A stretch of 64,000 nucleotides of DNA. Origin: Tubulanus polymorphus (taxonomy: Eukaryota; Animalia; Nemertea). Positions 1 through 47,740 of the stretch are shown here, piece after piece. Within the stretch, counting starts at the first letter, position 1, and every line of letters starts with the position of its first letter. A program made the translations under genes and the position numbers. The stretch is from contig NC_134030.1 of assembly GCF_964204645.1 (NCBI RefSeq), positions 15,934,110-15,998,109 of the forward strand. Reading direction: 5' to 3'. The notes below the pieces were generated by a model. The model made no database searches. It had not been told where the DNA came from and saw only the letters and a list, made by a program, of their open reading frames with translations.

Positions 1-2234
1 TCTCATTAATTGGAAATCATCATTATTTGGGTAGTGTTGTTTTAATATTTTTAATTCATCATCAACTAATGATTTGGATAAGTTATCTAATGAACTATTT
101 AAAAATCTATATGAATCTATAAATCTTAGGCAACCAAATTGGAATGATATATAATTCTCAGATGTTTTAGCTAACATTCTAAATTTATAAGTTGGTATTT
201 TATCTTTTGATCTATTTGAATTTAATCTTTCTATTTCATTATTAATTTCTTCTATTTTATGGCATAACTGTTTGATAAATAAATGTGCATCATATCCTGA
301 TAGATTATGAAATATAACTGGTACAAAGTTAATTTTCTTAGCTTGTAAGTTACAATTCTCATGTGCAGCGCCTCTAAACTTTCCGTTCAAATGATCATGG
401 TCTCTTACTTTTTTATCTTTATAATTGAATATCTTTTCACAATAATAACATTTATCTGCAAACTCAAATGCTTCTTTATCTTCTTCTGTCATTATAATTT
501 CTATATTTGTATTCAATAATTTACTAAATCTTATTTCATATTCAATTAATAAGTCACAAAAATGATTGATAACATTTTCATTTCTATAATGATAATATTC
601 ACTTTTAATTAGTTCTGGATAATCAGATTTAATATATAACCCGAAAGCAGCAGCTGATTGATGAATCTTTTTAATTGTATTTGTTTTTGGTGGTTCATCT
701 GAAAAATCATTTTCATTAGAATTTAATTTCTTTCTTTTATATTATATTTCTTTTCTATCTTGATCAGTTAGTTCTTTATTTAATGATTCAAAATCTCCAT
801 ATATAACAAATGGTACTTTATTCTTGTAATCATATTTTTTGAATTCTAATATTTTATCTTTTTCATTTGGTAAAACTAATTTACAATAATCATGATTTTC
901 ACATAATTGTTTATGATTTAATAATGTACTTTCATTACTGAATCTATGTAAACATTTTCTACATAGATATATTTTATTATGGTGATCACTTTCTGTTCTA
1001 AAGAATAAATCTATTTGTTTAATCCACATATAATGATTCTCGTAATATAATATATTTATAACATCGTTTGAATCATAATCTTTTGATAGGTATATAGGTT
1101 CTAATGTATAATGTTTTATGTTGTTACCTTTTGTATTTGGTAATTTGATTAAAACAAATACATTTATTCTTAAATTATTATCTCTTTCTATTTTTGGGAT
1201 GTTTTTAATTCTAACAGGATACTTATCTATCTTATAATTATTTTCAAGTGGTTTATAATGAGTTAATCTACAAATATTATAAGTTGCAGGATGTAAGCAA
1301 CTAATTATTGCCCATAGAAAACATTTATCATCTTCATTTTGTACATTTATAACAGCATTAGTTTTAAATGGTAGTTTAATATAACTCGATGCTTCAATAT
1401 CTAGTTCTTTATAATATGACACATTATTTTCATAAATTGGTTTTGATTTAGTTAACTTATTATATTTTGTGTTATAAACATGTAAAGTCATAAATATTAT
1501 CTCATCAAATATTAAACCAGACCCTTCAAAATATTTCTCTTCTATTCTAGTTTTTACTTCATTATAACATTTATCTAATTTATCATCTATATGTTGTTTT
1601 GAAATAATATGTTGTGAATGAGAATTTATATTATATATTGGTTTATCTTCAGATTTTATAAACTTTACTTTAACCGATATACTAATTTTCGGATATTCAA
1701 CATCTGTAATTATTTTTATTATTTCTTTCATATTTTCTAAATGTTTTTTATTTTCTTCTAATGTTTTACCTTTATGAAATTTAAACTCGATAGCTGCTGG
1801 ACCAATATCACTTTTAAATGCTTCGGTTATCTCTATATCTTTTTTATTATCTAATGAATTAATATATTTTCTTACATCTTCCATGTATGGTCTTTTATTG
1901 TTTAATTTATTTTTTATGCTTTTAATTGTCTTCTGTTTCTTAACATTATCTTAATCAAAATAATCTTCACCTAAAATATCATTATTCTTATTTCTAATAT
2001 GACTTTTAGATTTTAAATGTTCATTATAATATCTCTGAATGATTGATTACATGTATCACATTTGTATGTTTCTTTTTCATTCTTTAATTCATCTAATTTA
2101 GTTTCTAATATATCATCTTTATATTCTAGTTTCAATTTATTCTCTAAATGTGTTTTAGTTTTATTGTGTCTTGATTTTTGGGATTTATGTATATTGATAT
2201 TACATGTTGGGCAGTAGTACTTATTTGCTTCCAT
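1..2234 (-). pseudogene. pPolB 5' portion, disrupted (copy 1)
   Basis: ORFs 2013-2234 (C2H2 finger CPTC...H...H) and 742-1884 (DDKCFLWAI, VIYGDFES) are nearly identical to ORF 27901-29634; frameshifts and stops lie between them. Confidence 0.9.
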
Positions 2235-2477
2235 TTTAATACTAAATTTTTTATTAAAATTGATTTTAGAAGTTCAATGATTTATATCATGTATTATTTC
2301 AATCACACTTTACTAACACTTTTAATGTTTAAAAATCTAACTCACACAAATATAAATATTGAAATAATGTTGTAAATATATCTATATATCTATTCTATAA
2401 GAGTTCACACTTTTATATTGAATAATCTGTCAATTTGAATGTTATTCATTTATATTTTATTCATGTATATGTGAATG

Positions 2478-2665
2478 AGTAATAGGGATAATAGGCTTTC
2501 AGGTTAAAGGTTGAAGGGGGGAGTGAGTAAAAAATGAAAATAATGATAATTTACAGTTGAATTAGGAGTGTGCGCGACTAATTCAACTGTAAATTATTGT
2601 TATTTTCATTTTTTACGAGCTCGACCGTTCGACCTTTGATCTGAAAGCCTATTATCCCTATTACT
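2478..2665. repeat. Terminal fold-back hairpin (~188 bp imperfect palindrome)
   Basis: AGTAATAGGGATAATAGGCTTTCAG...GAATTAG-GAGTGTGCGCGA-CTAATTC...CTGAAAGCCTATTATCCCTATTACT. Confidence 0.95.
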
Positions 2666-16557: not shown

Positions 16558-16732
16558 CGATTACATTTCACTTTCGACGTACGCCGCAATTTTACATTTT
16601 TCATAGGTGGCGCTAGCCAACGGACAGCGTCTTCCATCGTTACCGCTGCGGGTTTTGAGCGGCAATGCAAGAGGTCATCACACTGACATAGCGAAACTAA
16701 CTTAGCACGTTTATATCAAACAATAACACGTC

Positions 16733-17079
16733 AGTAATAGGGATAATAGGCTTTCAGATCAAAGGTCGAAGGGTCGAGCTCGTAAAAAAATGAAAATAAC
16801 AATAATTTACAGTTGAATTAGTCGCGCACACTCCTAATTCAACTGTAAATTATTGTTATTTTCATTTTTTACTCACGCGCCCCTTCAACCTTTAACCTGA
16901 AAGCCTATTATCCCTATTACTCTTAAAATATTCATATATATATAATATATAAACATAATTTACATGAATAACATTTAAATTGACAGATATTCAATATAAA
17001 AGTGTAAGCTCTTATAGAATAGATATGTAGATATATTTACAACATTATTTCAATATTTATATTTGCATGAGTTAGATTT
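16733..17079. repeat. Left TIR; 16733-16921 is a 189-bp hairpin
   Basis: Reverse complement of ~29832-30128, and self-complementary over its first 189 bp. Confidence 0.95.
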
Positions 17080-17523
17080 ATAGATATAGTTAAGATAAAA
17101 AAGTTTATTATATTAAATCCTAAAACAGTAAAAGAAAATTTAGATAATTGTATAAAAATAGCAATTGATACTTATAAAGGATCAAATACATTATTCATTG
17201 TAGATGATTGCGCTAATTTACATGATTCAAAAGTGAGAGAAAGTGAGTTATGTTATCTAGCTTTCTCTGGAAGACATTTCGGGATAACAACATGGGTTTT
17301 AAATAAAAAATATAATTCAATTGTTAAAGACTTTAGGGAGAATATAAGATTTCTAGTTTTATTTTATAACAAAGATAAAAAATCTATGCAACAATCATTG
17401 GAAGAAAATCAAATTATACCTACTGAATTACATGATGAATATATGAATAAATTAAAGAATAATAAAGGTTCAAAATTATTACTGAGATTACAATTTCCAT
17501 ATGAATATAAATTTATAAAATAA
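17071..17523 (+). pseudogene. A32/FtsK-like packaging ATPase, C-terminal half
   Basis: In-frame Walker B LFIVDD (17191-17208) and SGRH motif; no Walker A or start codon, and it abuts the TIR directly. Confidence 0.85.
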
Positions 17524-17877
17524 CTATTTATATACCTATGTATCTAATACGTATTTAATACGTATTAAATACATTAATACTTAAAACCCCCTTTTTTAAA
17601 ATAAATATTATTCATACAATTTTCAACCAATTTATTTTTATTTTTTTTAACTAATATATGAATAAGTTTGAAAATAATAAAGGTTATTTATTATTACTGA
17701 GGTTTCAATATAAATTTTAAAAAGAAATATAATTTAAGGTATTTTCAAATAATACGTATTAGATATGTATTAGATACGTATTAGATACCTTAATACTTAA
17801 AACCCCCATTTTTATTTACTATTATTTTATACAATTTTCAACCTTTATTACTTTTTGAGTTAAATATAATTAATATC

Positions 17878-18746
17878 TTAATCACTTTCACTATCAGACC
17901 CTAACAATCTATTCAAATGCTCTACTGAATCTACATCAATAGTTGTTTTATTTTTATACTTTTTCATCCTTTCTACCGCATCATCAATAGTTTCTTCTTT
18001 ATGTTTCATAGAATCTTTATTATCAATATCTGTAACTATATCACCATGTGGGTGCCATACGGCACCATTTTCATTATTATCTTTATTAGTGTTTGCTCCT
18101 AATATTTCATTTACAATGTTTGATTCTAATTTAATAGCATCGGTTAAATCTAATTCATCTTTATTAGGTGTTGCTAACAATAAATCTTCATATAATTCTT
18201 TACCATTTACTTTTTGATTTGAAACAAACTTTGTAACATATCTAAATGGGTGTTCTATAAATTCTTTTTTACCAACACGTTCTATAACATTAGTAGTATG
18301 TACCTTTGTATTCATATGATTATTCCAATTTGATGGAGCGTTTGAAAATTCACCTTTACAATAATCACAATAATTTCTATTTTCACTAACATTTAATATT
18401 GTTGCATTATTAGATGTAGAAGGTATAACATTATTAGATGTAGAAGGTATAACATTATTAGATGTAGAAGGTATAACATTATTAGATGTAGTAGGTATTA
18501 CATTATTAGATGTAGTAGGTATTACATTATTAGATGTAGAAGGTATTACATTATTATCAATTACATTACTTAAATTATCAACAACACCACTTATTATTAT
18601 CGATTTCTATTAGTTTAGTTTTATAAATTTTGAAAATAGGATCAAATATATAAAGCTATATTACAAGGTATTACATAATATAAACCATCATTATTTTCAT
18701 GTGTATCGATGTATGGAATATGTTTATATACTTTACCTCCTTCCAT
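17878..18746 (-). pseudogene. Viral protein with NNVIP(S/T)TS repeats and a C2H2 zinc finger
   Basis: TAAATG start at 18746, then a frameshift; CDYC...NNH..TKVH is in frame with ORF 17878-18315. Confidence 0.65.
18405..18556. repeat. 24-bp coding tandem repeat, 6 full units plus a partial unit
   Basis: Unit CATTATTAGATGTAG(A/T)AGGTAT(A/T)A. Confidence 0.95.
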
Positions 18747-18778
18747 TTATTATATAAATTTTTATTAAAGTTAAAATT

Positions 18779-20025
18779 TTAATACATAACACTATTCAAT
18801 TGAGAATTTACAATATTTAATTGCGCGTCAGATATAATATAAATGTGCATTTTAAAATTTTTGATTCCTTTATTCTTTGTCATGAATAATTGTATTCCAT
18901 CGTTAGTGTTCTGTAGTTTTTTTCCAGAACCATGTAATGAATTATCCTCTGTTGTTCTAAAATCTAACCATAATGCATATTTATTACCGGTATAATAATC
19001 AATTTGATTAATGTTACAATTTTCAGATGATTTCACTTTTTCATTCATAAAATGTTTTCTAATTTCTGGCCATTGATCAATCATTCTCATTCCTTGACAA
19101 AATATTTTATTTGCTATTCCTTCGATAGTTATTTCTACTTTTGTTATTTCAGGATTATAATAATTATCAACATTTATTGCACCATTAGTATATGTTGCAA
19201 TGGTAAAAATATTAACATACCTTTAATAGATCTTCTTGGGAAGTTAATATTCTCATTAATTATTTCATCATTTGCATTAATAGTTACAGTTTTAAATTTA
19301 TCAATATAATCATATAATAATGAAAATCCTTGATTGTATTGAGTTTGAATTATACTTGAAATATTTTCATCAGTTACTGTATCATATTCTAAACATATAT
19401 TCGATAATTTATAACTCATATCTTTATTAACGCTAGATATTACAATTTCATTAACAGGAGCAAATGTTATTTAGAATATAACATCTTCTTGAATTGCGTA
19501 TTTATATAAAGGCGCATTATTATTTATCAATTCGAAGTCTAATGGAATTTAATATTTGCTTCCATATATAATTTTTATCAATTTATCTATAGCATTAGTT
19601 AATATTGCGCTATTAGCTTCTGATCTTAATTTATTTTGGTTTTCTGATTGGATTCCTTGAAATATCATATTATTTCTATTTTCTTTAGTTAGCCATAAAT
19701 CTTTATAATGCATAAATAAATTATAATCATCTAATGAGAAAACTGTTTCTGGACCAATCTTTATAGTTAATTTTTTAATCAAATATCTTCCAACATTATC
19801 AACAACATAATTATTATTATTACCGATTACTTTTATATCGGCTGATAAATAAATACTATTTGGAACATAAAAAGTATTTTGTGTTAATCGAGGAATTCTA
19901 ACATATAAAGTTTCATCAGGATTAATATTAGAAGGGTTATGAGTAATTATATGATGTGATCTTTCTGCTTTAATAGCATTAGATATTCTATGATTCTTAG
20001 AAGGATTGATATAACTCCCACTCAT
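18779..20025 (-). pseudogene. Major capsid protein (double-jelly-roll type), disrupted
   Basis: Three ORF pieces totalling ~410 codons; THNPSNINP, NVGRYLIKKLTIKI, YKLSNICLEYD and KYALWLDFRT..LHGSG recall invertebrate Polinton-like MCPs (recognised by eye). Confidence 0.75.
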
Positions 20026-20065
20026 TTATTTAACAAAAAAATTAATTATCTATTTTTTATCATGT

Positions 20066-21721
20066 TTACTTGATATTTTTTGATATCATATTTACTAACC
20101 CAAAAATAATAGCACTTACAACTGTAATTAAAAATAAAATAATATGTTCAGCAGCAAAGTTAATAATGTTTCCTGCAGATTTCAATATAAAACCAACAAT
20201 TGATGCAATAACTCCTGGTAAAGCTGCAGCAGATTTTTTAGATAGTTCCCATAAATATTTTGCTAATTTCTTTAAACGATCTTTAACTTTATCTTGTATA
20301 GAATTATTATCTAGGGGTTTATCTGGTTTATTTGGAGTAGGAGTAGATTTCAAAGCATTTGATATAGCTAAACCAATTGATGTAAATAACATAGTTACAG
20401 CTGTTAGAATTGAAAGAATTGTTATTCCTTCTAATTTAAATAATAATTTTATTCTATCTTTCAATGATATTTTAGAATCTGGTTTTATCAACAAATCTTT
20501 AAAAATAACTTTTAATCTATTTATATTATAATCATATGATTTTAACAATAATTTAATTTCTTCTTTTTGTAATTCTAAATTATCTTTTAAATTATTAATT
20601 TCTTTTTCTAAACGTAATTCTTTTTGTCTATATTCCATTTCATCAATTACTTGACGATCAAGATCAGACTTTAATTGTTCTATTTCTTTATTTTTATCAG
20701 TTAATTCTTTTTCTAAATTGTTAATTTTAATATCTCTTATACTTTTTTCATTCGCAATTTTATCAGCCGATTCTTGCATACCTTTAATTTCTCTACGTGT
20801 TAGTTCAGGATATGCTTCTAATTCATTATCAGTTAAATCAAGTAATCCTTTTTCTAGTAAAGATTGTATTCGATTTATTCCAGTACTATTCATCTCTTCT
20901 TCTGAATCTCTTAATCTATCAATTTGTTTTTCTAATACTAATTTTAATTGACTTGAATCATTATCAATTGGTTGAGTGTCTCTTCTCGATGTTTCGGGTG
21001 TTGAAGATCTTAATTTATCTAATCGATCTCTATGATCTTCCATTTCTGGATCAACATCATTAGGATTTAAATTTGGATTTTTAAATGGTGAATATTTGTT
21101 AATATCAAATTTAGGAATTGGTTCTTCTTCATCTAGTATATCGAGTGCATTCCATATAATTCTGAGAAATTCTGTGCCACCTTTTGAATGTTCAATTGTA
21201 GATCTTGCTAACATTTTAGGTTCAAAAATATTTTCTTGACCAATTCTAGATAATTGTATTGATACAGTTTTGTTATTTAATTCAACATTATAATACCATG
21301 AATCATCTTTAAATTCTAAATTATTCATGAAAAATGGGTCATCATTTATAATTTGTTTTACAATTTCTTTATCTATTACATCTTTTGGTAATAATTCGTT
21401 AACAATTGTATATATTACTCTATTTTTCATTAATTTTAATTGAGATTTCATAAGAGGATCAGTTGTATTTACTAATCTTTTCATTAAATCCTTTTTAGAT
21501 GTTGCGGTTCTAATAACTAACCTTTCGGAAGCTGTCATATATTCTTTAAATTCTTTACGCGTTTCATAATCATAATCATCATCTTCACCTAAATTAGAAT
21601 TACGTCCTGGCTTATTACCATCATTAAAACTTGTTTCACTAAAATCAGGTGGTTGTTCATCAGTTATGCCAGGTTCATCTAAAGTATCCATTGGAAAATC
21701 TTCTCCACCTTTTACATCCAT
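20066..21721 (-). CDS. 551-aa coiled-coil protein with C-terminal hydrophobic/TM helices
   Basis: Intact ORF; heptad-rich segment at ~aa 300-400; hydrophobic segments GITILSILTAVTMLFTSIGLAI, AALPGVIASIVGFIL and IILFLITVVSAIIFGLV. Confidence 0.85.
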   Translation of the reverse strand: MDVKGGEDFPMDTLDEPGITDEQPPDFSETSFNDGNKPGRNSNLGEDDDYDYETRKEFKEYMTASERLVIRTATSKKDLMKRLVNTTDPLMKSQLKLMKNRVIYTIVNELLPKDVIDKEIVKQIINDDPFFMNNLEFKDDSWYYNVELNNKTVSIQLSRIGQENIFEPKMLARSTIEHSKGGTEFLRIIWNALDILDEEEPIPKFDINKYSPFKNPNLNPNDVDPEMEDHRDRLDKLRSSTPETSRRDTQPIDNDSSQLKLVLEKQIDRLRDSEEEMNSTGINRIQSLLEKGLLDLTDNELEAYPELTRREIKGMQESADKIANEKSIRDIKINNLEKELTDKNKEIEQLKSDLDRQVIDEMEYRQKELRLEKEINNLKDNLELQKEEIKLLLKSYDYNINRLKVIFKDLLIKPDSKISLKDRIKLLFKLEGITILSILTAVTMLFTSIGLAISNALKSTPTPNKPDKPLDNNSIQDKVKDRLKKLAKYLWELSKKSAAALPGVIASIVGFILKSAGNIINFAAEHIILFLITVVSAIIFGLVNMISKNIK

Positions 21722-21736
21722 TTACATAACAAAAAA

Positions 21737-23081
21737 TTAAAATTTAAAATATAATATTCCTCCGATTACAATTCCTATACAAGTTATAGCTAATTTAGTA
21801 TTTTCATGGGATTTATTATCATCATTTAGTTTAATTATATCATGTTGAATATTATCAGTTTTTATATCTTCTGATGTATTGTAATCTTTTATTTTAGGAT
21901 CATTATTTAATTTAATATTATTAGTTTTAGTTTCTGTTGATTGAATATGTTTTTTATTTTTTTCACCTTCCATTTATATTGGAGCAGTAATAATCTTTTT
22001 ATTTATATCATTTAATCCAAATGAATTATTTATTGTTGCAGTTTTAATTAGATTATTGTAACCAATTATGTTTCCCATCTTTAATACTAAATCATTAGAA
22101 ATAATAAATAGATTAGGGCCTATACAATAATTTAATCTAATATGTGATTTATCTAAATAATTTTGATATCTTACAATGTTTTCCGGAATCGATCTATTTT
22201 TATCATTATGAATTGAATCTTCAAATAAAACTTTGAATTGTTTCTGCGCATCGAATGAAGTGTTATCATTTACAATTATTGGGGATCTTGTTTCAACTTG
22301 AGCACCTAAAATACATATCAAATAAGTTCTAATTGATTGATTTATTCTTTGTATTCCAGCTTTAGTAAAACCGTCACTATTTTCTAAAATGAAATTAACC
22401 CAACCATTATTGTTTTGTTGTTGTATATTATTATAATATTTTGGTAATTCATTCCAATTTAGTAATTCATTCCAATTTAGTGTTCTTATATCTGAATTTG
22501 TCATTATTTTTCCAAATTCTTTAGTATATAATATTCCTAATCCACCCATTGTTCCAATTTTTGCTCTAAAATCTTTATTTGAATTAATATTAAATTTATT
22601 ACATATTTTATTAAAACTTAGAAAAATTAATATTATTATTCAATTCTTTAAAATATTTTGAACCTGGTAAAGGACATTCTAATTCATCTAATATTAATTT
22701 TATTTGAAAATATGTATGAAATCTAAAAGGTGATAACATCACTTGTAAACTTGGTTTGTTTAAATGATCATTCCAACTAATTCCACATCCTGTTGTTGCG
22801 CAATAAACAGCAAAATTTAATTGGTTCTGCCAATACTTCATATTAGATTTTAATAACCATTGTTTTGCCTCATTTAAATTTTTGAAATTAATTGTATACA
22901 CATGAAATATATTTTCCATCTTTACATGAAAATTATTACTTTCAGTAACATAAATATATAAATCAATTAATGAATTTAAAACTTCATTTCTATATGTAAT
23001 ACCTTTATTAAAATCTATTGCTGGAATATTATATTTAATTGATTTATTATATTGGAAAGCTTTTGGAAAACTATCTGCCAT
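21737..23081 (-). pseudogene. Conserved viral protein (YWQNQLNFAVYCATTGCG) with C-terminal TM anchor
   Basis: ORFs 22611-23081, 21974-22549 and 21737-21973; the last two are in frame across a single TAA; homolog at 44497-44795. Confidence 0.75.
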
Positions 23082-23097
23082 TTATATAATTAAAAAA

Positions 23098-23524
23098 TTA
23101 ATAATTTATCAATTCTTTTAATAATTTATCTTGTTCTTCAACTGTTATATGACCATTTAAACTTATTATATAATCTAGTGTATTCTTTAATTTATTAATT
23201 TCTTTTATATTAGTTTTCATTTTTTTCTTTATTACTTCTTATATTTAATTTTGAACTTATACCAGTTAAAACACTTGCACTTAATCCTAACACACCAATT
23301 GATATAGCTAAAGGTGTTAATGGACTGAATATTGCTAAAAATGTTATTACAGAACTAATTGTAACCGAACCACTTATAATCAAATAATATATAATTTTAG
23401 ATTTTAAATATTTTTTCTTTTTAACTTTTAAGTCACTTTCAAATTCTAATATTTGTTTTTCTAAATATATTTTTAATTTAGTTTTATTTATATCATGAGG
23501 AATAATATCAATATTATCATCCAT
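23098..23524 (-). pseudogene. Two-TM plus helical protein, frameshifted
   Basis: ORF 23210-23524 has two hydrophobic helices; the tail LKNTLDYIISLNGHITVEEQDKII lies in another frame; homolog at ~44810-45242. Confidence 0.7.
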
Positions 23525-23544
23525 TTATTTAGCAAAAAAAATTA

Positions 23545-23967
23545 CTAATTAGTAAACTTAAAAGCAACAAATATAACAATAACTGTTCCACCTAAAATCC
23601 AAATTATTTCATATTTCTGTTGTTCTTTACTTGGGGTATAATAATCTGATAATTTAGGTTTGTATAGATGTAATTTTTCTTTATTGGTTACCGCGTTATA
23701 TAAACTCATTGCATCATCAACTGATTGAAAATCTCTATGTGAAATCTTCTGATCATATAATTCCTTGTTAATATAATCCATATAGTTTTGCCTCTTTTCT
23801 CTATATTCTTCTGCTGCTTTATTGTATTTCTCTAATGCTAAGTTATGTCTTTTTTGTTCTGTTAATGATCCATTTTTATCAATATGTTTAAATAAATATC
23901 CACCACCAGTAAATGCTAAAGCGTTAACAATTGCCGATCCTATAATAGTTATAACCGCAGAAGCCTT
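23545..23967 (-). pseudogene. Membrane protein with hydrophobic N- and C-termini; start codon mutated (ATG>AAG)
   Basis: In-frame upstream ASAVITIIGSAIVNALAFTGGGYLF...KRHNLALEK; C-terminal TM; TAAAAG in place of TAAATG. Confidence 0.75.
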
Positions 23968-23991
23968 TTATTTAGAAAAATAATTACGCAT

Positions 23992-24213
23992 TTATATGGG
24001 AGGAATATATGTTTGTTTTTCCATATAATCAATAGTTAAATTAGATAAAGTAACTGCTAATGTTAATTTTAAGATATCATTTATATCAAATCTATCAACA
24101 TTAACACTTCCCATTTTAAATACTTTTTTCAATACCATTGAATAACCAACAGTTCCAACTGATAGTAATGCTCCATTATATAATCCAGTTATTATCCACT
24201 TATTATCACTCAT
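23992..24213 (-). CDS. Small 73-aa putative membrane protein
   Basis: Intact; hydrophobic helices; conserved homolog at 45682-45909. Confidence 0.8.
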   Translation of the reverse strand: MSDNKWIITGLYNGALLSVGTVGYSMVLKKVFKMGSVNVDRFDINDILKLTLAVTLSNLTIDYMEKQTYIPPI

Positions 24214-24554
24214 TTATTTATCAAAAAATTACTTTCATCAAAATATTTAGTTAACTTATTTATGATTAATTCAACATTTATTTCATTACTACTTTTATGA
24301 TTATCATATATTTTGGTTAATATGTTTTTAATATCATCAATAATTCCATCTTCATTTAATTCATAATATTCTAAAGGTGATTTAATTAAATCAATTACTT
24401 TTTCTATATTATAATTTTCTTTATTAATCATTGATGCATTGTTAAATGATTTACTTTTTATATCAGTAATTACATCATTTAGTTTAATTCTCATTTCTTT
24501 ACCATGTATAAAATCAAAACCAAAACATATACTCGGTCCAACAGTTATATTCAT
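24210..24554 (-). CDS. Hypothetical viral protein, 114 aa
   Basis: TAAATG start; MNITVGPSICFGFDF is also present in the decayed homolog ending at 46263. Confidence 0.7.
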   Translation of the reverse strand: MNITVGPSICFGFDFIHGKEMRIKLNDVITDIKSKSFNNASMINKENYNIEKVIDLIKSPLEYYELNEDGIIDDIKNILTKIYDNHKSSNEINVELIINKLTKYFDESNFLINK

Positions 24555-24571
24555 TTATATAGCGAAAAAAA

Positions 24572-25333
24572 TTACTCTCTACATCTTATAACTAATTCAT
24601 AAATTACAGGGAAATTATTTAAATCAATTAAGTATCCATTGTGATTTCTAATTTCTAATCTAAAATTATTAAAACGAGGAATTCATGGTTTGAAATCACA
24701 TTCTGTTAAATTATAATTTATTTGCGTTCCAAATTATTTAACATTCTTCAATGGTAAAATGTTTAATAAACCAGAATTACAAGTTATATCTTTAGTTGCT
24801 TCGAATGTTTTTGTAGGATCGATTAAATTGCAATAAATATAGAAATGTGTGTAAGGTATTAAGTTTGGTGTAACATCATCAATATTTTTAAAAGATCTAT
24901 CTGGAAGAATTCCTAACAGTTTAGCTATAGGTTTTTTTACCATAAATTTATGTTTTTCACTATTAGACAACCTTATCTTTATTCTATCAGAACTATCACT
25001 TTTTAAAAATCTAATACTAAACCCAGAACTACTACCTAATTAATGCCAGGCTTTTCTATTAATTTCTTGTGCTAATGTATCTAAATTATATAACCCCGGT
25101 TTTAAATATATATAGGACCATTCATTTTTACCTTTATCAAAAATTAAAAAGGCTCTATGTTCAATAGTTTTATTCCTTATATTATAAAAAGAATTACATA
25201 AACTTATTTTAACTAATTTTAAATCTACACAATTCTTGAATTCTCTATCTAATTGTACTAGTAAATTATGAGATTTACAATTTGTAAGTTTTCTTGAATC
25301 AACAAATATTCTGTATTCTTTTAATTCTACCAT
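24572..25333 (-). pseudogene. Minor capsid protein (penton, single jelly roll), disrupted
   Basis: IFVDSR, SLCNSFYNI, PGLYN, AKLLG, FYIYCNLID, LLNILP and LEIRNHNGYLIDLNNFPVIYELVI follow the typical penton motif order. Confidence 0.8.
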
Positions 25334-25350
25334 TTATTTTACATATTTTC

Positions 25351-25704
25351 TTATTCGAAATCTATTTCATGGTGCCCTTTTTCATTCTTACCTTTGTATA
25401 CGAAATAGAAATCTCCAGAACATAATTCTCCTAAATCTTCACTTGATAATCTATGAAATCTATCTGGTAAATATGTTCTGAATTTATGTGTATTTCCTTT
25501 TAATCCTTCATATTCTAAGTATATAACTAATTTATCTCCATAGTTATTAGTAACTGTATCAATATTTGTAATTAGATATTTCTTATGAATTGTTAATTTT
25601 ATTAACTTTTTGAATTTATAATCTACAGATTTTACATTTGTTATATCTTTAATTCTATCTAGAAATAATTTGTTGTTCTCACTGTGTGTTTGTTTACTCT
25701 CCAT
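25351..25704 (-). CDS. 117-aa viral protein, possibly OB-fold ssDNA-binding
   Basis: Intact; pattern FKKL..L...KKYLI....T.YGDKLVIYL...TYLP.RF...FVYKG; the fold is an inference. Confidence 0.6.
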   Translation of the reverse strand: MESKQTHSENNKLFLDRIKDITNVKSVDYKFKKLIKLTIHKKYLITNIDTVTNNYGDKLVIYLEYEGLKGNTHKFRTYLPDRFHRLSSEDLGELCSGDFYFVYKGKNEKGHHEIDFE

Positions 25705-25788
25705 TTATAATACATATTTTAACACGTAAGAATTCTTTTCATTATCTCGTTCTCTTTTGTTTCTTCTCTTTTAAATTTTAAGTATGAA

Positions 25789-28700
25789 CTAAGTATAAGC
25801 GACTGTATGAATTCCATCATCTAAAATATATCTTTTATCATCAAATGGGTTTAGACTTATCTTTTCAATTTCTTCAATAAACATTTCATGATCTTCAGAT
25901 CTTAAACATCTCATCTTATGTTTTCTAACTTCTTCATTGAATATACAATTGATGTAATCTTTGAAATGAATATTCTTTTCTACTACACTTTTGGTTATTC
26001 CTTTTAACTTTTTAGCTTCATGTTCTTTAGTTTTATATGAATACATTGTAGATCTAATACCTATGAATTCAATCATTTCTTCACCACCTAATTCATCTTT
26101 GAATTTACCGGGAACTTTTTTATTATCATTGCTAAACAATTCATGATCTTTAGGATAATTACTGAAATCAAAATGATGTTTTAATGTTTTTAAATCATCA
26201 GTTATGTTATTAGTTTTTATCTTTAATATGTAACTGTCGGTATCAAAATATAGTATTTCTATATGTTTTTCTCCAAAAAGTGGTTGTAATACATTATAAT
26301 AGAATTCATACATTAGTAATTTTGATAATTCTAAAACTGAAGCGCCAACATAGATTGGTTTAATAAATTTCATTGATGTTCTTCTCATCTTAACTGCAGC
26401 TAAATTTTCATCAAATATTCTGTAACCAATGAACTTAGGATATGTTTGTAAATGTCTAATTCTTTTACCATTACTAACTAACTCAATATCATTTCTATTT
26501 CTAATATATTCACAAGTCTTACCATAGAATGCATTATTCATTAACTTGAAGAAATCTTTTTCGAAATCAGTTTTAGCTTCAGTTCTCTGTTTGGTGTTAA
26601 AATCTATATATTTTTCTAACCACTTAGATTGACTGAATGAAATATATCTATGTACTTATTTTAGAACCATTCCTTGTTTTAGATAAAACTTTAACATTCT
26701 ATAATGTACTACATAATTAGATTTATCTTCCTGAGTTACCATTAACTTTTCTGTATGAATATGATTTTCAGGTTTAATTCTTTTTTGGTAATTTGATAAT
26801 TCTTCATGAGTTACAGTTTTATGTTCGGGACAGTAAGCTAGATTTCTAGATTTAAATTTAATATGTTCAGGATATTCTAAATCTACAACAAAGAAGTAAC
26901 CAGTATCTGAATCATCTGCAATATCTAGAATTCTTTTCTTCCAATCAAATTTATCATTATTTTCATTCTGTAAAACTTCACTTACTTCAAATACTCCATA
27001 AGGTTGTGGTTCCATCATTGCCCAACCATACAAATTATTTGCATCTATATATAATAACTTATATCCAGGGTTATCATTTACATTGAAATATCTATCGCCT
27101 TATACACCTGAAACTCCTCCTCTTATAGATTTTTCAAATAATAATAATTGATCTATATTTGTTAACAAATCCATTTTTATATCTGTAAATTTTAATCCAC
27201 AATCCCATGTAAAACCTGGGCTAGAATAACAATGACAAGGATCAATATTGAAATATTTTAGGTTTACATCTCTAAACCTTTCGAATATATCGGTTAATAA
27301 TAATACATCTGATTTTAAATATAAATCTACTAATTGCCCATGATTTTCTATTTTGAAATGATTCCAAATATTCAATGTTCTATTATAGACTTCATCTTTC
27401 ATTTTTTAATTCATCATAGAATTGTTCTTTCAATAATTCAGTTATGTTAAAATCATTATGTGATTTATAAAATGAATATGGAATTGCTCCTTTATATCTC
27501 ATTAATTGAAAATCATCATTATTTGGGTAGTGTTGCTTTAATATTTTCAATTCATCATCAACTAATGATTTTGATAAGTTGTCTAATGAACTATTTAAAA
27601 ATCTATATGAATCTATAAATCTTAGGCAACCAAATTGGAATGATATATAATTCTCAGATGTTTTAGCTAACATTCTAAATTTATAAGTTGGTATTTTATC
27701 TTTTGATCTATTTGAATTTAATCTTTCTATTTCGTTATTAATTTCTTCTATTTTATGACATAACTGTTTGATGAATAAATGTGCATCATATCCTGATAGA
27801 TTATGAAATATAACTGGTACAAAGTTAATTTTCTTAGCTTGTAAGTTACAATTCTCATGTGCAGCGCCTCTAAACTTTCCATTCAAATGATCATGGTCTC
27901 TTACTTTTTATCTTTATAATTAAATATCTTTTCACAATAATAACATTTATCTGCAAACGCAAATTCTTCTTTATCTTCTTCTGTCATTATAATTTCTATA
28001 TTTGTATTCAATAATTTACTAAATCTTATTTCATATTCAATTAATAAGTCACAAAAATGATTGATAACATTTTCATTTCTATAATCATAATATTCACTTT
28101 CAATTAGTTCTGGATAATCAGATTTAATATATAACCCGAAAGCAGCAGCTGATTGATGAATCTTTTTAATAGTATTTGTTTTTGGTGGTTCATCTGAAAA
28201 ATCATTTTCATTAGAATTTAATTTCTTTCTTTTATAATATATTTCTTTTCTATCTTGATCAGTTAATTCTTTATTTAATGATTCAAAATCTCCATATATT
28301 ACAAATGGTACTTTATTTTTGTAATCATATTTTTTGAATTCTAATATTTTATCTTTTTCATTTGGTAAAACTAATTTACAATAATCATGATTTTCACATA
28401 ATTGTTTATGATTTAATAATGTACTTTCATTACTGAATTTATGTAAACATTTTCTACATAGATATATTTTATTATGGTGATCACTTTCTGTTCTAAAGAA
28501 TAAATCTTTTTGTTTAATCCACATATAATGATTCTCATAATATAATATATCTATAACATCGTTGGAATCATAATCTTTTGATAGGTATAAAGGTTCTAAT
28601 GTATAATGTTTTATATTGTTACCTTTTGTATTTGGTAATTTGATTAAATCAAATACATTTGTTCTTAAATTATTATCTCTTTCTATTTTTGGGACGTTTT

Positions 28701-29733
28701 TTATTATAACAGGATACTTATCTATCTTATAATTATTTTCAAATGGTTTATAATGAGTTAATCTACAAATATTATAAGTTGCAGGATGTAAACAACTAAT
28801 TATAGCCCATAGAAAACATTTATCATCAAAATTTTGTACATTTATTACAGCATTAGTTTTAAATGGTAGTTTAATATAACTCGATGCTTCAATATCTGGT
28901 TCTTTATAATATGATACATTATTTTCATCTATTGGTTTTGATTTAGTTAACTTATTATATTTTGTGTTATAAACATGTAAAGTCATAAATATTATTTCAT
29001 CAAATATTAAACCAGATCCTTCAAAATATTTCTCTTCTATTTTAGTTTTTACTTCATTATAACATTTATCTAATTTATCATCTATATGTTGTTTATATAT
29101 AATATGTTGTGAATGAGAATTTATATTATATATTGGTTTATCTTCAGATTTTATAAACTTTACTTTAACCGATATACTAATTTTAGGATATTCAACATCA
29201 GTTATTTTTATTATTTCTTTCATATTTTCTAAATGTTTTTTATTTTCTTCTAATGTTTTTCCTTTATGAAATTTAAACTCGATAGCTGCTGGGCCAATAT
29301 CACTTTTAAATGCTTCGGTTATCTCTATATCTTTTTTATTATCTAATGAATTTATATAATTTCTTACATCTTCCATGTATGGTCTTTTATTGTTTAATTT
29401 ATTTTTTATGCTTTTAATTGTCTTCTGTTTCTTATCATTATCTTTATCAAAATAATCTTCACCTAAAATATCATTATTCTTATTTCTAATATGACTTTTA
29501 GATTTTAAATGTTCTTTAAAATATCTTTTATCACTGAATGATTGATTACATGTATCACATTTGTATATTTCTTTTTCATTCTTCAATTCATCTAATTTAG
29601 TTTCTAATATATCATCTTCATATTCTAGTTTCAATTTATTCTCTAAATGTGTTATAGTTTTATTGCATCTTGCTTTTTGGGATTAGTCTATATTGATATT
29701 ACATGTTGGGCAGTAGTACTTATTTGCTTCCAT
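25789..29733 (-). pseudogene. polB: Protein-primed-type family B DNA polymerase with N-terminal zinc fingers, an OTU-like protease and an EndoVII-like insertion; disrupted
   Basis: ExoI YGDFES, ExoII FHNLSGYD, ExoIII YLKSDV, SIRGG, motif A DANNLYG, motif B KLMNNAFYGK, motif C YFDTDS; several stops and frameshifts. Confidence 0.95.
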
Positions 29734-29831
29734 TTTAATACTAAATTTTTTTTTAAAATTGATTTTAGAAGTTCAATGATTTATATCATGTATTATTTCA
29801 ATGACACCTTACTAACACTTTTAATGTTTAA

Positions 29832-30128
29832 AAATCTAACTCATACAAATATGAATATTGAAATAATGTTGTAAATATATACTTTTATATTGAATAATCT
29901 GTCAATTTAAATGTTATTCATTTACATGATTATTTTAAGAGTAATAGGGATAATAGGCTTTCAGGTTAAAGGTTGAAGGGGCGAGTGAGTAAAAAATGAA
30001 AATAACAATAATTTACAGTTGAATTAGGAGTGTGCGCGACTAATTCAACTGTAAATTATTGTTATTTTCATTTTTTTACGAGCTCGACCCTTCGACCTTT
30101 GATCTGAAAGCCTATTATCCCTATTACT
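29832..30128. repeat. Right TIR; 29940-30128 is a 189-bp hairpin
   Basis: Inverted copy of the left TIR, and self-complementary. Confidence 0.95.
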
Positions 30129-33100
30129 CACGTCTTAAAAAAAAAAAAATTACATTTATTTTTTTACGTAACATAATTTTTCCCTCCCGTATTTTAACTT
30201 TAAAAAACGTAAGATTTTCAGAAAAACGTACTCCCGTAAATTGAGGTTCGTTTCCGTAGCAATTATGGAAAATACGTACAGGTTGGCACCTCTGTTAGAA
30301 ATTAGACAAGGCAAAAGGCCGACAGATCCTATAGCCGTCCGCACTCACTTGGGCTGGTGTATTTTAGGTCATACGGTTCAAGGGTCTCGTAATGAACCGA
30401 GGTTCTGTTTTAAAACGACAGCCATTGAGACTCATGGTACAGTTTTGTCGTTGGACAAGCAAGTTGAAAAATTTTGGGAGACCGAAACGTTCGGCGGCGT
30501 TGACCTCTTCGATGATGATAAAAAATCGTGCTCTGTAGAAGATCACCGTGGATTGGAGATCTTTGATAAATCCTGCTGTTCAGTCGACGAACACTACCAG
30601 GTTGGTATGCTTTGGCCGAACATGGATTCATCCATGCCCAATAATCGATTTCAGGCCAAAATCCGTTCCACAAATCTTAAGAAACGATTGAATAAAGACA
30701 CACAATGAATGGCTCTTTATTGCAAAACCATGAATGGCTACATAGAAAAGGGCCATGCAAGGAAAAGGAGTAATGGAGAGTTACAATCCCTTGGTAAAAG
30801 AGCATGGTTTCTTCCCCACCATGGTGTAGTTAACCCCAATAAACGCGACAAGGCCAGGGTAGTGTTTGACGCTGCAGCTCCGTACCTCGGTGTATCTTTA
30901 AATAATCAATTAATGACAGGGCCAGATTTATTAAACAGTCTGTTTGGGGTTTTGCAGCGGTTTCGTTTAGGAGTTGTTGCCATTGCAGCTGATGTGGAAG
31001 GCATGTTCCACCAAGTGAAAGTTCCGGGGGCTGATTCAAAGTCCCTTCTGTTTTTGTGGCAAGAAGATTTAACCGCTGATGGGGAGCCGGAAGTCTATAA
31101 AATGACAGTACATATTTTCGGCGCAGCGGATTCCCCATGTGTTGCTAATTATTGTTTTAAACGCTCAGCCACTTTGCTTTGCTTTTCAGTGAAGATGCCG
31201 TACAGACTATAATACGAAATTTCTATGTGGATGATATGTTAAAATCTGTATCTTTTCCATTACAGGCCATCGAACTAGCAAAGGAAGTAACAGAAATTCT
31301 GGCTCGTGGTGGTTTCCACCTCACTAAATGGATGTCAAACAACCGTGAGGTACCAGCGCAGATTTCGAAAGATGAGAGAGCCCGTCCTGAATTAGACTTA
31401 GAACTCGACGAGATGCCTGTTGAGAGAGCACTCGGCGTGAAATGGGATGTCGAAACTGATTCGTTCCTGTTCAAGCCAGCTGTTAGAGTGGGAATCCCGA
31501 CGAAGCGTCTTGTCGTTAGTACGGTTAGTTCCATTTTCGATCCGTGTGGTTTTGTGTCTCCTTTTTCAGGGCGAAGTGTCTTATACAGCAGATATGGAGA
31601 CAGAACTTCGATTGGGATACTGCATTGTATGGTGATGTTCTCACACGCTGGCTGAAATAGATAAGTGAGCTACATTTTTAGTTGACTTCAGACTAAACCG
31701 GCACCATGTAGATTTGTATGTTGGAAGCACTAAAGTAGAATTCCACATATTTTGTGATGCTTCGGAGGCTGGCTTTGCTGCTGTTGTGTATCTCCGAATG
31801 GAGCGTCCATCAGATGAATTTGTGTGTTCGTTCTTGGCGTTAAAGACGAAGGTGGCTCCTCTTGAAATGTTAACTGTTCCCAAATTGGAGCTGGAGGGAG
31901 CCGTTCTCGTTGTCATGCTGTCTAGTTCGCTTAAACATGAGTTGAAGATATTGGAATTTGAGCGCACTTGCTACTGGACTGATGCGGTTTCTGTCCTGAG
32001 GTATATAAACAACATGTCGACACGCTTGAAAACGTTCGTCGCCAATCGATTAGCGAAAATTCACCGTTCTACCAACGCTCAGCAACGGATGCATGTGCCA
32101 TCAGATCAGAATGCCGCTGATGCTGCTACAAAGGGTTTACCAGCAGCTGGGATCGATTGGACCCCATGTGGCTAAATGGCCCTCAGTTCCTTAGGTTTCA
32201 TGAGTCTGAATGGCCAGATCAGACTTTTGTTCATGGTCCAGTACTATATCCTTCAAATGTGAAAAAATGTTCTCTGTATAAAACAAGTGTTGTCGTTAGT
32301 AAAGCTGAAAATTATGTTGTGATTCTAGCATTCTTGAATTTAGTCGTATTTCGGATTGCACAGATGTCTATCGATTCTCACCATGGTTCAAGCTACGGCG
32401 GCATGTAGCCTGGCTTCTACGTGCGGTGAGAAAATTCTCATCAGTCATTCCTCGTCTGAAAGTCGACCGAGGCCGGAAAGGTCGCCTTCTATTCCTAAAT
32501 ATCTCCAAAAGAAGTCCCTTGCTCCCGTTACGTCCGTTTTATGACGGAGGTGTCCTGAGAGTCGGCGGTCGTTTGACAAACGCAGTGATACCATATGAGG
32601 CCAAGCATCAGGTTATATCGCCCTTTGGTGACCATATTACCCGCCTTATCGTTGCTGATGTACACGAATCTCTTTATCATGCTGGGCCGGAACATGCAAT
32701 TTCTGAGGTCAGGCAAAACTTTTGGCCCGTAAAGGCCCGTAGCTTGGTGCAAAGTGTAATTAGTAAGTGCTCAGTTTGTCGCCTCAGTAGAATCAACCCA
32801 TCGATCCCTATTATGGCTGATTGTCCCGTGTTGCTGGTTATACCCGTCCTTTTACTTATACAGGTATCGATTATTTTGGTCCCATGTTTGTTAAGCTTGG
32901 TAGAAGCATAGTTAAAAGATGGTGCCGTTTGTTTACGTGCCTTCTAACGAGGGCGATTCACTTGGAAGTTGCGGATAACCTGGAAACCAATGCTTTCATT
33001 TTAGTCTTGCGTAATTTCATAGGCCGAAGAGGTCCGCCATCCGAAATTTACAGCGACAACGGAACTAACTTCGTGGGCGCTGATCGCGAACTTAGCGAAG

Positions 33101-43800: not shown

Positions 43801-45681
43801 TAAGTGAGTAATCGAAAATGTACAGGATACATTCGTGTGGATGAAATCAAGATAACTCCACCCTAAAATTCCACTATTCAATGGTCAACACGCAGCTTAA
43901 ACAAACCGCCATTCAATACGCAAGTCATAATGTATATCTACGCACATCAAATCAAAACACTTGAATTACAAGGGTTGACTCACGAGAAACGATTAAACTA
44001 GCAATTTGATTGGGAAAATAACGGCACTTTAGTTAAAAAAAATGATAAACCACCTCTGACTTAGCTTAGCCCTCATATGGAACTATTTCTGACAGGTGCA
44101 CTCTGCCACTGTGATTCGCCCATTCAACGATAGAAACTTTTCCACGGTCTTACTATCGACATTTTCTAACAATTTAGGGAAATATCTAAAAAAAGAAATT
44201 TCACACTCTGCATTAATAAGATTAAAGGTCAAGTGCCCTCTTATTCCTACTTTTTGAGGTTTACTTTCCAAATGATACTTAAGTACTCAAATAATGACCT
44301 GGGATCAGCCTTATAGAAAAAAATCATGTATGTCCCTTAAATCAGTAAAATTTAATAACTCGATCATTGACCTATACAGCGTATGCGCCTTGGCCGCAGC
44401 TGCATGTCAGCGCCATATTCATGCGTCATCTTTGCCAAACAAACATACACGTGAGTAATAGGGTAAGTGTCTTTTCATACCAGAGGTCGAAAGGTCCAAC
44501 TTATACCACATCCTGTTGTTGCACAATAAACAGCAAAATTTAATTGATTCTGCCAATATTTTATATTAGATTTTATTTTATATATATTATATTCATCTCG
44601 AGTAAAAGTAACTTCATATGATGTAAATATATTTTCCATATTAGAAATAAAATAATTAGTTTCAGCTACATAAATTTCTAAATTAATTAATGAATTTAAA
44701 ACTAAATTTTCATACGAAATATTTTTATTTAAATCTATTGCAGGAATATTATATTTAATGGATTTATTATATCGGAAAGCTTTTGGAAACCCCATTTACA
44801 TAAGAAAATTAATAATTAATTAATTCTTTTAATAATTTATCTTGTTCTTCAATTGTTATGTTACCATTTAAACTAATAATATAATCTAATGTATTTTTCA
44901 ATATATTAATTTCTTTTATATTAGATTTTATTTTTTCTTTATTACTTTTTATATTTAATTTACAGCTTATATACCAGTTAAAACACTCGATGATAATCCT
45001 AGCACACCAATTGATATAGCTAAAGGTGTTAATGGTGAGAATATTGCTAGAAATGTTATTTCAGAACTAATTGTAGCTGAACCACTTATAATAAAATAAT
45101 ATATAATTTTGCTTTTTAAATATTTTTTCCTTTAAACTTTTAAATCATCAAATTCTAATATTTGTTTTTCCAAGTATAATTGTAATTTACTTTTATTTGT
45201 ATCATGAGGAATAATATCATTATTATCAACTTTATCATCCATTTATTAAAAAATTACTAATTTGTAAATTTATATGCAACAAATAAAACAATAACAGTTC
45301 CACTTAAAATCCATATTATTTCATATTTCTTCTGTTTATTACTTGGGGTATAATAATCTGACATTGTAGGTTTGTATAGATGTAATTTTTTCTTTATTTG
45401 TTACTGCGTTATATAAACTCATAGCCTCATCGATTGATCGAAAATCTCGGTGTGAAATTTTCTGATTATATAATTCTTTATTAATATAATCCATAAAATT
45501 TTGTCTATTTTCTCTATATTCTTCTGCAGCTTTATTATATTTTTCTAACGCTAAGTTATATCTTATTTGTTCTGATAATGAACCATTTTTATCAATATGC
45601 TCTAATAAATAACCACCACCTGTAAATGCTAAAGCGTTAACAATTGCCGATCCTATAATAGTTATTATTTAGTAAAAAAAA

Positions 45682-45909
45682 TTATGCATTTATAGGAGGG
45701 ATATATTTTTGTTTTTCTAAATAATCAATAGTTAAATTAGATAAAGTAACTGCTAATGTTAATTTTGAAATATCATTTATACCAAATCTATCAACATTAA
45801 TACTTCCCATTTTAAATACTTTTTTAAATATCATTGTATAACCAACTGTTCCCATTGATAGTAATGCTCCATTATATAATCCAGTTATTATCCACTTATA
45901 ATCACTCAT
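45682..45909 (-). CDS. Small membrane protein, homolog of 23992-24213
   Basis: Intact 75-aa ORF, closely similar sequence. Confidence 0.75.
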   Translation of the reverse strand: MSDYKWIITGLYNGALLSMGTVGYTMIFKKVFKMGSINVDRFGINDISKLTLAVTLSNLTIDYLEKQKYIPPINA

Positions 45910-46280
45910 TTATTTATCAAAAAAATCACCTTCAAAATATCTAGTTATCTTCGTTATAATTATTTCAACATTCATAATATCATTAGTTTCATTTTTATAT
46001 ATTTCAGTTATTATTCTTTTAATATCATCGATAATAAAATCTTCATCTTATTCATAAAATCTTAAAGAATTTCTAATTAAATCAGTAATCTTTTCTACAT
46101 TATAAGTTTCTTTATCTGTTATTTTTTCATAATCAAATGTTGTTCCATTAAAAAATGCAATATTTTAAATATGTGTAATTACATTATTAATATCAAATTT
46201 CATTTCTTACTCACATTTAAAATCAAATCCAAAACATATACTCGGTCCTACTGTTATATTCATATTCATATAACAAAAAA

Positions 46281-46904
46281 TTACTCTATACATCTTATAA
46301 CTAATTCATAAATTACAGGAAAGTTATCTTAATCAATTAAATATCCATTATGATTTCTTATTTCTAATTTAAAATGATTAAATTGTGGAATACAAGGTTG
46401 AAAATCACATTCAGCTAAATTATGATTTAGTTTAAAGTTTAGTAACAGTTTAGCTATAGGTTTTTTAACTAAAAATTGATGTTGTTCGTCATTGTCTAAC
46501 CTAATCTTTATTTTATTATTAATATCACTTTTATTAAATCTAATTCCAAACTTATCTTCACTCTTGAATTTTATAAATCTAATTGCAAATTTATGTTCAC
46601 TTCTAATTTTTAACCGTGCTCTTCTTTTAATTTCTTGAGCTAATGTTTCCAAATTATATAATCCTGGTTTTAAAAGTAAAGTAAACCATTTACTTATAAT
46701 TCTAATATGATTCATAAAAGAATTATATTCTAGAGTTTTATCCGATAAATTACAAATCGAATTACTTAAACTTATATTTACAAATTTTAAATCTACAAAA
46801 TTTCTAAATTCTCTATCTAATTGTACTAGTAAATTGTGAGATTTATAATTTGTAAGCTTTCTAGAGTCAACAAATATTCTATATTCTTTTAATTTATCTT
46901 GCAT
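46281..46904 (-). pseudogene. Penton homolog, internally deleted
   Basis: IFVDSRKL, PGLYNL and LEIRNHNGYLID, followed by a premature stop. Confidence 0.75.
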
Positions 46905-47740
46905 TTATTTTACATATTTTTTTATTCGAAATCTATATCATGACATCCTTTTTCATTCCTACCTTTGTATATGAAATAGAAATCACCAGAACACACTTCT
47001 TCTAGATCTTCACTAGATAATCTATGAAATCTATGTGGTAAATATGTTCTGAATTTATATTCATTTCCTTTTAATATTCTAAGTGAATAACTAATTTATT
47101 ACCATATCTATTAGTAATTGTTTCAATATTTGTAATTAAATATTTCTTATGTAATGTTAATTCTGTTAACTTTTTGAATTTATAATCTACAGATTTGACA
47201 TTTGTAGTATCTTTAATTCTATTCTATTCTATTTAAGTCACTGTGTATTTGTTTACTCTCCATTTATTATACATATTTTTTTATAAAAATTTCATTTATA
47301 TAATATTCATTTATATAATGTTCATACATATGAATATCATTAGAGTAAAAGGGTTAGTGTTGTTTCATATCAGAGGTTGAAAGGTTGAGTGAGTGAAAAA
47401 TAAAATGAAATTCGAGCGTGTGAGAATTTATTTTTTATTCTTTATGAGCTCGACCTTTCGACCTCTGGTATGAAAAGACACTTACCCTATTACTCATGTG
47501 TGTGAACTCAGTACACATTGCCTATATGTAAAATCAATAAAACAACACCATTCCTTCACTTTATTCACAGCTCTACTGCTGGCTATCCATTGTATGTTTC
47601 TTGTGTTATCTATTACAGTATCAACAGTATCATCAGAAAGAATTTAGGAATCTTAAACAACTTCTAAAAGGATTAAATACGCTACGAATGGTGATTATGC
47701 GGTGCAGGATTAGAGACTGGAAACTGTTGGATTATTTCAG

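Follow-up and report, generated by a model that had tools for sequence, protein, structure and literature searches.

Hairpin-forming terminal palindromes of a Polinton/Maverick clade in Tubulanus polymorphus

Results

Why should a DNA element that carries a protein-priming polymerase begin and end with long self-complementary hairpins? The question is raised by E1, an integrated and decayed Polinton/Maverick in 64,000 nucleotides (nt) of the nemertean Tubulanus polymorphus (assembly GCF_964204645.1, contig NC_134030.1, positions 15,934,110 to 15,998,109 of the forward strand; this whole stretch is hereafter the window). Our analysis indicates that the palindromic ends of this Polinton clade are real and conserved, and probably functional. 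The palindromes belong to E1, its sister copy E0 and a copy from a second family, E2:

16733..30128, element E1, integrated decayed Polinton/Maverick (adintovirus-like), ends AGT...ACT, ~23% GC, 13.4 kb
29940..30128, + strand, right terminal palindrome of E1, 189 nt (inner arm 29940-30027, loop 30028-30039, outer arm 30040-30128)
16733..16921, - strand, left terminal palindrome of E1, z-score -22.4, in the same element-relative orientation as the right end and with 1 difference from it
2478..2665, + strand, terminal palindrome of E0, 188 nt, z-score -19.9
47344..47494, + strand, right terminal palindrome of E2, 151 nt, z-score -12.7, with another arm sequence and identical arm asymmetry

Folding of the element ends

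Folded as single-stranded DNA, the right end of E1 (29940-30128) gave a single hairpin of -80.6 kcal/mol (z-score -23.8), and 0 of 200 shuffled sequences folded as well. The loop is 12 nt long (GAGTGTGCGCGA, 30028-30039), and 80 of the 87 aligned arm positions are Watson-Crick pairs, with 4 G:T pairs and 3 other mismatches. The terminal T, the last base of the hairpin, is paired to the A that opens the inner AGT, and the 3′ end is thus flush. A 3′-terminal hairpin with a paired 3′-OH, of the parvovirus type, is predicted for all full palindromes. The palindromes of E1 end exactly at the boundary between element and host, with CACGTC on either side. The outer arm carries the motif GG(T/G)CGA twice; in the inner arm at least one copy reads TGA. 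A preliminary description of this DNA had reported fold-back hairpins at 29940-30128, 16733-16921 and 2478-2665, with the terminal 3′ end paired to the inner AGT. Folding bore out both points, although the fourth palindrome, at 47344-47494, had been overlooked. An assembly artefact was ruled out as the source of the palindromes, as reads span the loop and the palindromes differ between several families.

Paired variation among copies

Five full ends from about three lineages were compared. Both sides had changed in 15 of the 46 terminal pairs, and 93.4% of the cells in this comparison pair. None of 500 shuffles reached the observed pairing and slid registers paired at 38-53%, bearing in mind that relatedness among ends inflates such statistics.

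Raw short reads of genomic DNA from the host species (~12% of run X6) were then considered, of which 7415 aligned to the end region. Read depth over the E1 end was ~36x that of the flank, itself a retroelement, and the reads contain tens of copies with paired variants. Beyond 30128, 1584 loose read ends depart from the reference with an agreement of only 0.34, and therefore lead into many different host flanks. Among the best 40 of 73 read variant rows, 33 fall inside the palindrome. Once a variant in the loop and two second alleles had been set aside, the other thirty were used for pairing and define 19 geometric pairs. In nine of the 19, complementary variants occur on both arms at similar shares (e.g. 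30015 A>C at 64% with 30052 T>G at 55%). Pairing is kept or improved in eight further pairs, i.e. 17/19 in all. The reads are unphased, and we take both variants of a pair to lie on one molecule. Judged from the sequences, the fold is kept through compensatory change, which points to selection on the fold.

The reads also contain copies in which the centre of the palindrome is deleted (joints 29984-29987 to 30080-30084, 5-15 reads each), and the joints from 29986/29987 to 30082 carry 1-2 letters between. Other copies have different centres, and at least one further subfamily is known only from loose ends at 29986 and 30071. Opposite-strand joints (5 of the 15 listed, 8-15 reads each) may be mapping ties or library fold-back and were not taken as evidence.

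Strand and orientation of the fold

Transition mismatches between the arms, read on the 3′-terminal strand, are G:T in 17 cases versus A:C in 2 (right ends of E0 and E2, and the metagenomic relative L011; nominal p = 0.0004, with sites that are not fully independent, some being shared by descent). On this evidence the fold appears to matter on the strand bearing the terminal 3′-OH, the strand that a primer would occupy.

The arms are also polarised. A single orientation, with the CGA-type arm outside and the TGA-containing arm inside, was found at 5/5 full ends (4/4 termini in the window, and L011). E1, E2 and L011 all retain this difference between an inner TGA and an outer CGA, as does a further relative, L013, for the inner arm only. 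Letters diagnostic of the flop orientation (29974 T>C; changes at 29986-29988) are not among the best 40 of 73 read variants, the lowest share of which is 15.4%. The expected share of such letters is 22-25% for a 50:50 mixture of flip and flop, and 15-17% for 30% flop. The flip/flop isoforms that the preliminary description proposed to look for were thus not seen as a 50:50 mixture in these short reads, and orientation is fixed, for integrated copies only. Host CpG decay by itself was judged a weak explanation for the inner TGA because CpG is little depleted in the host DNA around the elements (observed/expected 0.86-1.02).

Identity of E1

E1 has terminal inverted repeats with AG...CT ends and a 6-bp target duplication, an end motif and duplication likewise reported for Polintons in PMC8097293. 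It also carries capsid and packaging ATPase genes, the capsid match being weak, and a family B DNA polymerase of the protein-primed kind (pPolB), recognised from a broken gene, open genes in relatives and adintovirus folds. Its features are as follows:

16727..16732, + strand, target-site duplication CACGTC, left copy, 6 bp
30129..30134, + strand, target-site duplication CACGTC, right copy, 6 bp
29829..30128, complete right inverted repeat, 83% match to 16733-17082, with indels inward of the palindrome
25789..29733, - strand, pPolB gene, interrupted by stops and frameshifts
25351..25704, - strand, predicted single-stranded-DNA-binding protein (SSB), 117 aa, adjoining pPolB, best fold match phage PRD1 P12
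18779..20025, - strand, major capsid protein, in pieces; the first piece has a weak Capsid_N match (E 0.0013, under the curated cut-off)
17071..17523, + strand, packaging ATPase fragment (Pox_A32, E 5.5e-6, above cut-off), abutting the left repeat

The inverted repeat reaches ~350 nt, past the palindrome, with indels. An internal deletion is evident where the ATPase fragment adjoins the left repeat. The 6-bp duplication implies that an integrase acted on E1. One lies downstream of pPolB in the close relative L012 (rve, E 6.6e-9); used as a tblastn query, it found no match in the window, and this copy of E1 is therefore internally deleted. Among the 21 open reading frames (ORFs) of this internally deleted element there was no match to an Ulp1/adenoviral-type maturation protease. 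Neither an HUH endonuclease (Rep/NS1) nor a resolvase was found by Pfam in these 21 ORFs, which leave the deleted part of E1 unseen, or in 7 ORFs of relatives. A 24-nt in-frame tandem repeat of ~7 copies (18381-18596) lies within an E1 ORF of no assigned function.

Polymerase and predicted single-stranded-DNA-binding protein

The N-terminal part of pPolB comprises a terminal protein (TP)-like domain with a Ser in an EGSG loop and the vOTU Cys/His residues; after this part comes an endonuclease VII-like insert. In the modelled N-terminal ORF, helix 95-118 and strand 124-136 enclose a Gly-flanked loop that contains S121, and all 26 sequences compared share the vOTU catalytic residues C187 and H283. 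The top Foldseek matches of the TP-like region are Y-family polymerases over ~120 columns (E 0.006 and weaker). In the relevant part of Krupovic et al. (10.1101/2024.03.18.585575) the linking residue and the vOTU catalytic pair are placed likewise, and the TP fold is derived from the Y-family little finger. The model contains a TP-like domain with a putative linking Ser together with the vOTU catalytic residues, which may be active. The nearest viral folds of the N-terminus are those of Drosophila-associated adintovirus 2 and a MELD virus polymerase. As the polymerase retains both its TP-like and vOTU domains, protein priming would not have been replaced.

The 117-aa protein was modelled with a pLDDT of 84 and best matched the PRD1 SSB P12 (E 0.002); Pfam and PDB sequence searches gave it no name. 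The phi29 SSB, an Atlas lead, scored only 0.85 and was rejected. An endonuclease VII-like match was detected in the pPolB of three relatives (E 0.0002-0.004, under cut-off). The insert occurs in relatives with and without the hairpin (L015 being without) and in distant homologs.

Relatives with and without the hairpin

Relatives were collected by pPolB-alignment scans, which gave 80 metagenomic loci (the best 80 of 498 confirmed) and 8 viral loci. All 88 were covered by a gapped palindrome scan, which is no census, as most contigs stop short of an element end. L011 begins with a flush 257-nt palindrome (z-score -14), whilst L013 starts within a palindrome of which the inner arm is visible. Their pPolB genes are open (1363 and 1365 aa), have palm motifs and are 68-86% identical to the pPolB pieces of the window. 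Both the length of the palindrome (151, 189 or 257 nt) and its centre vary between ends. The pPolB of L015 is 63-64% identical to those of L011 and L013, and its end carries the same outer motif with no fold-back (z-score -1.4 to -2.7). The hairpin is therefore best seen as an add-on to an ordinary end. At the putative ends of L006, L055 and L067 a terminal palindrome was not found (z-score +1.2 to -3.6).

Palindromes in L028-L030, L074, L007 and L009 lie inside or away from pPolB, lack AGT/ACT ends and were judged to be other repeats. In three of these loci an element of ~980 bp lies upstream of a distant pPolB (L028:548-1520; L029:708-1691; L030:1771-2743); it has inverted ends of 170-190 nt, each with a 125-136-nt palindrome, plus an internal hairpin, and is probably a separate small transposon. 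Searching viral contigs with the C-terminal piece of pPolB found no relatives. An 18-base end-motif search matched 2 GC-rich contigs, which were unrelated and without palindromes. Directly after pPolB, relatives have a Cys-rich ORF of 234-256 aa (L011:5129-5830; L012:4079-4846), which we take to resemble a mobile nuclease; that of L011 had no Pfam match. The two closest polymerase fragments in the database (P0001, P0002) are on contigs of 16,883 and 16,878 nt, approximately the size of a whole element.

Other elements in the window

Besides E1, the window holds two elements with palindromic ends:

1..2665, E0, sister copy of E1 with 95% identity to it, truncated where the window begins
44454..47494, E2, internally deleted 3-kb copy of a second family, flanked by CACGTG/CATGTG

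The interior of the second family is ~78-83% identical. The left end of E2 keeps only ~44 nt of outer arm (44454-44497) and then jumps into the interior; if the deletion came before insertion, ~44 nt of outer arm were sufficient for integration. Target sites are CACGTC (16727-16732, 30129-30134), CACGTG/CATGTG (44448-44453, 47495-47500) and CACATT (2666-2671), whilst that of L011 (L011:184-189) reads CATAGT on the outgoing strand. All start with CA, and the four sites suggest a non-random choice with a CANNTG-like preference. BEL/Pao long terminal repeat retrotransposons lie at 30172-32175 and 36347-42730. The right flank of E1 is a decayed Pao element; the other Pao has 99% identical direct repeats (36347/42431).

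Discussion

E1 resembles other Polintons/Mavericks (Polintoviricetes) in its pPolB, capsid, packaging ATPase, AGT...ACT ends and 6-bp duplication, and in the integrase of a close relative. Unlike described members, each of its inverted repeats opens with a self-complementary hairpin of 150-260 nt. Neither ‘hairpin’ nor ‘palindrom’ occurs in the main texts of a vertebrate Maverick survey (PMC8097293) or a nematode survey (10.1101/2023.08.22.554363). Our literature search, which left aside the founding Polinton papers, Repbase and preprint supplements, likewise retrieved no description of terminal palindromes for animal Polintons.

The preliminary description knew of no account of such hairpin ends, a statement now outdated. 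A preprint of July 2026 (10.64898/2026.07.28.741278) describes, in the section concerned, palindromes that adjoin target duplications and lie within the inverted repeats of virophages endogenous to Halocafeteria seosinensis (subtypes 1, 2, 5 and 6) and of a Polinton-like virus (PLV; subtype 4) of the same host. In that section the palindromes are associated mainly with non-pPolB replicases, and priming from the hairpin is proposed. The likeness to E1 is that a palindrome sits within an inverted repeat, beside a target duplication, in an element inserted by an integrase. However, those ends come from a protist host, measure 52 nt in the example given and belong mostly to elements with non-pPolB replicases; the section contains no analysis of covariation, strand or orientation. 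The ends described here belong to an animal-type Polinton with a TP-vOTU-pPolB and an SSB, are 151-257 nt long, covary, and are strand-biased and polarised. Among the papers retrieved, the preprint alone describes terminal palindromes for this group of viruses, and its supplementary tables may list pPolB-bearing subtypes with palindromes. We regard E1-type ends as a new variant of a type of end described only recently, of interest for their covariation, strand bias and polarity in a protein-priming element.

Two better-known systems invite comparison. The best working analogy is with the linear telomeres of Streptomyces, whose 3′ single-stranded ends, according to the part of PMC4513846 concerned with them, fold via palindromes whilst a terminal protein primes. 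They differ in that their palindromes are several and short, the origin is internal and Tpg and Tap are separate proteins, and no homology is claimed. Parvovirus hairpins share the inward-pointing, paired 3′-OH, and arm asymmetry with one-sided resolution is described for the left end of minute virus of mice (MVM) in the corresponding part of PMC1185569. Unlike MVM or the inverted terminal repeats of adeno-associated virus (AAV), the present ends form a simple stem rather than a Y or T, with no HUH Rep found and no 50:50 flip/flop. Moreover, unlike parvoviruses, the E1-type element is double-stranded DNA with a TP and its own polymerase.

What, then, might the hairpin do? We tentatively favour a local snap-back, which may well turn the 3′ end of a freed strand back into a duplex origin for protein priming by TP-pPolB. 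A single strand would be freed by strand-displacement synthesis or by release from the chromosome. In the end-to-end panhandle model, the two distant ends pair with each other; here the 3′ end would instead fold onto its inner arm within ~200 bases, rather than meeting the other end 13-17 kb away. TP-pPolB would then bind the stem, prime opposite the terminal ...ACT-3′ and copy the outer arm, loop and inner arm, such that the full end would be regained without nicking and would keep its orientation. A CGA-to-TGA change would preserve the fold via a G:T wobble, and could prevent the inner copy from being mistaken for an end in duplex DNA. The snap-back is favoured because no additional enzyme is required, a single orientation results, only the 3′-terminal strand is involved and a hairpin-less sister with the same motif is accommodated. 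To our knowledge, neither the restart of Polinton replication on a displaced strand nor exit from the host chromosome has ever been shown. The replication model in use is itself a proposal, as cited in the relevant section of the preprint (10.64898/2026.07.28.741278), and Streptomyces offers a precedent in that 3′ overhangs fold yet a terminal protein primes (PMC4513846, in the part noted above).

Several observations weigh against this snap-back. Two of the 19 read pairs (29959, 29998), drawn from the best 40 of 73 rows, have broken pairing. The bound on flop is loose, with ~30% or less being compatible with the reads, and it assumes that variants outside the best 40 have lower shares and that flank-anchored reads align forward. 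The fold E-values for TP and SSB exceed 0.001, and the retention of TP, vOTU and SSB is equally compatible with a hybrid cycle (see below). L015 is one contig, and its inner arm could have been lost by deletion. All data come from integrated DNA, from which we infer the steps of every model. Furthermore, the consulted portion of PMC4513846 reports that the fold-back 3′ end of Streptomyces was extended in vitro with Mn2+. A paired 3′-OH is a good polymerase substrate, and the snap-back thus requires that its extension lose out.

Such extension is the core of hairpin self-priming, in which the folded 3′-OH would be extended into the second strand and the dimer junction nicked only at the outer-type arm, which would keep one orientation, as at the MVM left end. 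The nick would be made by the integrase or by the endonuclease VII-like insert of the polymerase. The flush, paired 3′ end of all full palindromes and the wobble bias on the 3′-terminal strand agree with it, as does the conserved arm asymmetry, which resembles the bubble of parvoviruses, where resolution of the dimer junction is asymmetric (PMC1185569, same part). The sub-threshold endonuclease match in the pPolB of three relatives would supply a nuclease, and the identical model is proposed for virophages and PLVs in the preprint section (10.64898/2026.07.28.741278). We nevertheless consider it doubtful. No Rep/HUH or resolvase match exists in the 21 ORFs of the incomplete E1, the endonuclease insert is shared with hairpin-less L015 and distant homologs, and the TP and vOTU residues are retained. 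Moreover, the loose ends past 30128 enter diverse flanks rather than the element's own inner flank, and the same section links palindromes mainly to non-pPolB replicases. In a hybrid cycle, which we hold to be just as doubtful, TP would start the first strand, the displaced strand would self-prime the second and the integrase would resolve the junction only at the CGA-bearing arm. We know of no Polinton for which such a cycle has been shown. If true, replication and integration would share one nick, and Polintons, virophages and PLVs would have come by this type of end more than once.

It is somewhat less probable that the hairpin works at exit from or entry into the chromosome, where a cruciform or fork fold would be nicked after ...ACT to release the 3′ end and protein-primed copying would lift the element out, replication of the free genome being otherwise standard. 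The coincidence of the hairpin base with the element-host boundary, the integrase of L012 and the centre-deleted palindromes in the reads are in keeping with this, and a fixed orientation and TP would follow naturally. However, a cruciform folds both strands, making a one-strand wobble bias less expected, and L015 appears to integrate without a hairpin. We regard as improbable a by-product without function, left by an end once copied back on itself and kept alike by occasional fold-back repair or arm conversion. The absence of the hairpin from L015 and three more distant ends (L006, L055, L067) is consistent with this, as are the nearly perfect stretches near the loop. Under conversion, mismatches would be expected to vanish, yet E1, E2, L011 and, for the inner arm only, L013 retain the inner-TGA/outer-CGA difference; transition mismatches fall 17:2 on one strand, and the low CpG depletion of the host makes methylation decay a weak explanation. 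Poxvirus closed telomeres and AAV symmetric transfer yield flip and flop ends in similar numbers. The preliminary description had raised the possibility that the integrated ends are the opened form of such covalently closed hairpin telomeres. Long, AT-rich, incompletely paired palindromes would suit either closed telomeres or symmetric hairpin transfer, but both now seem very improbable given the single orientation of the window termini and L011, the absence of flop letters from the best 40 of 73 variants and the presence of a TP-like domain.

Whichever mechanism operates, these ends are a short, defined substrate with built-in controls, namely a folded end, a non-folding relative with the same motif and a conserved wobble that separates the arms. 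Protein and hairpin priming can therefore be tested directly against each other with oligonucleotides. Taken together, these data extend terminal palindromes from protist elements, most of which lack pPolB, to an element of an animal in which the whole protein-priming kit is retained. This speaks against the view that a hairpin must take the place of protein priming.
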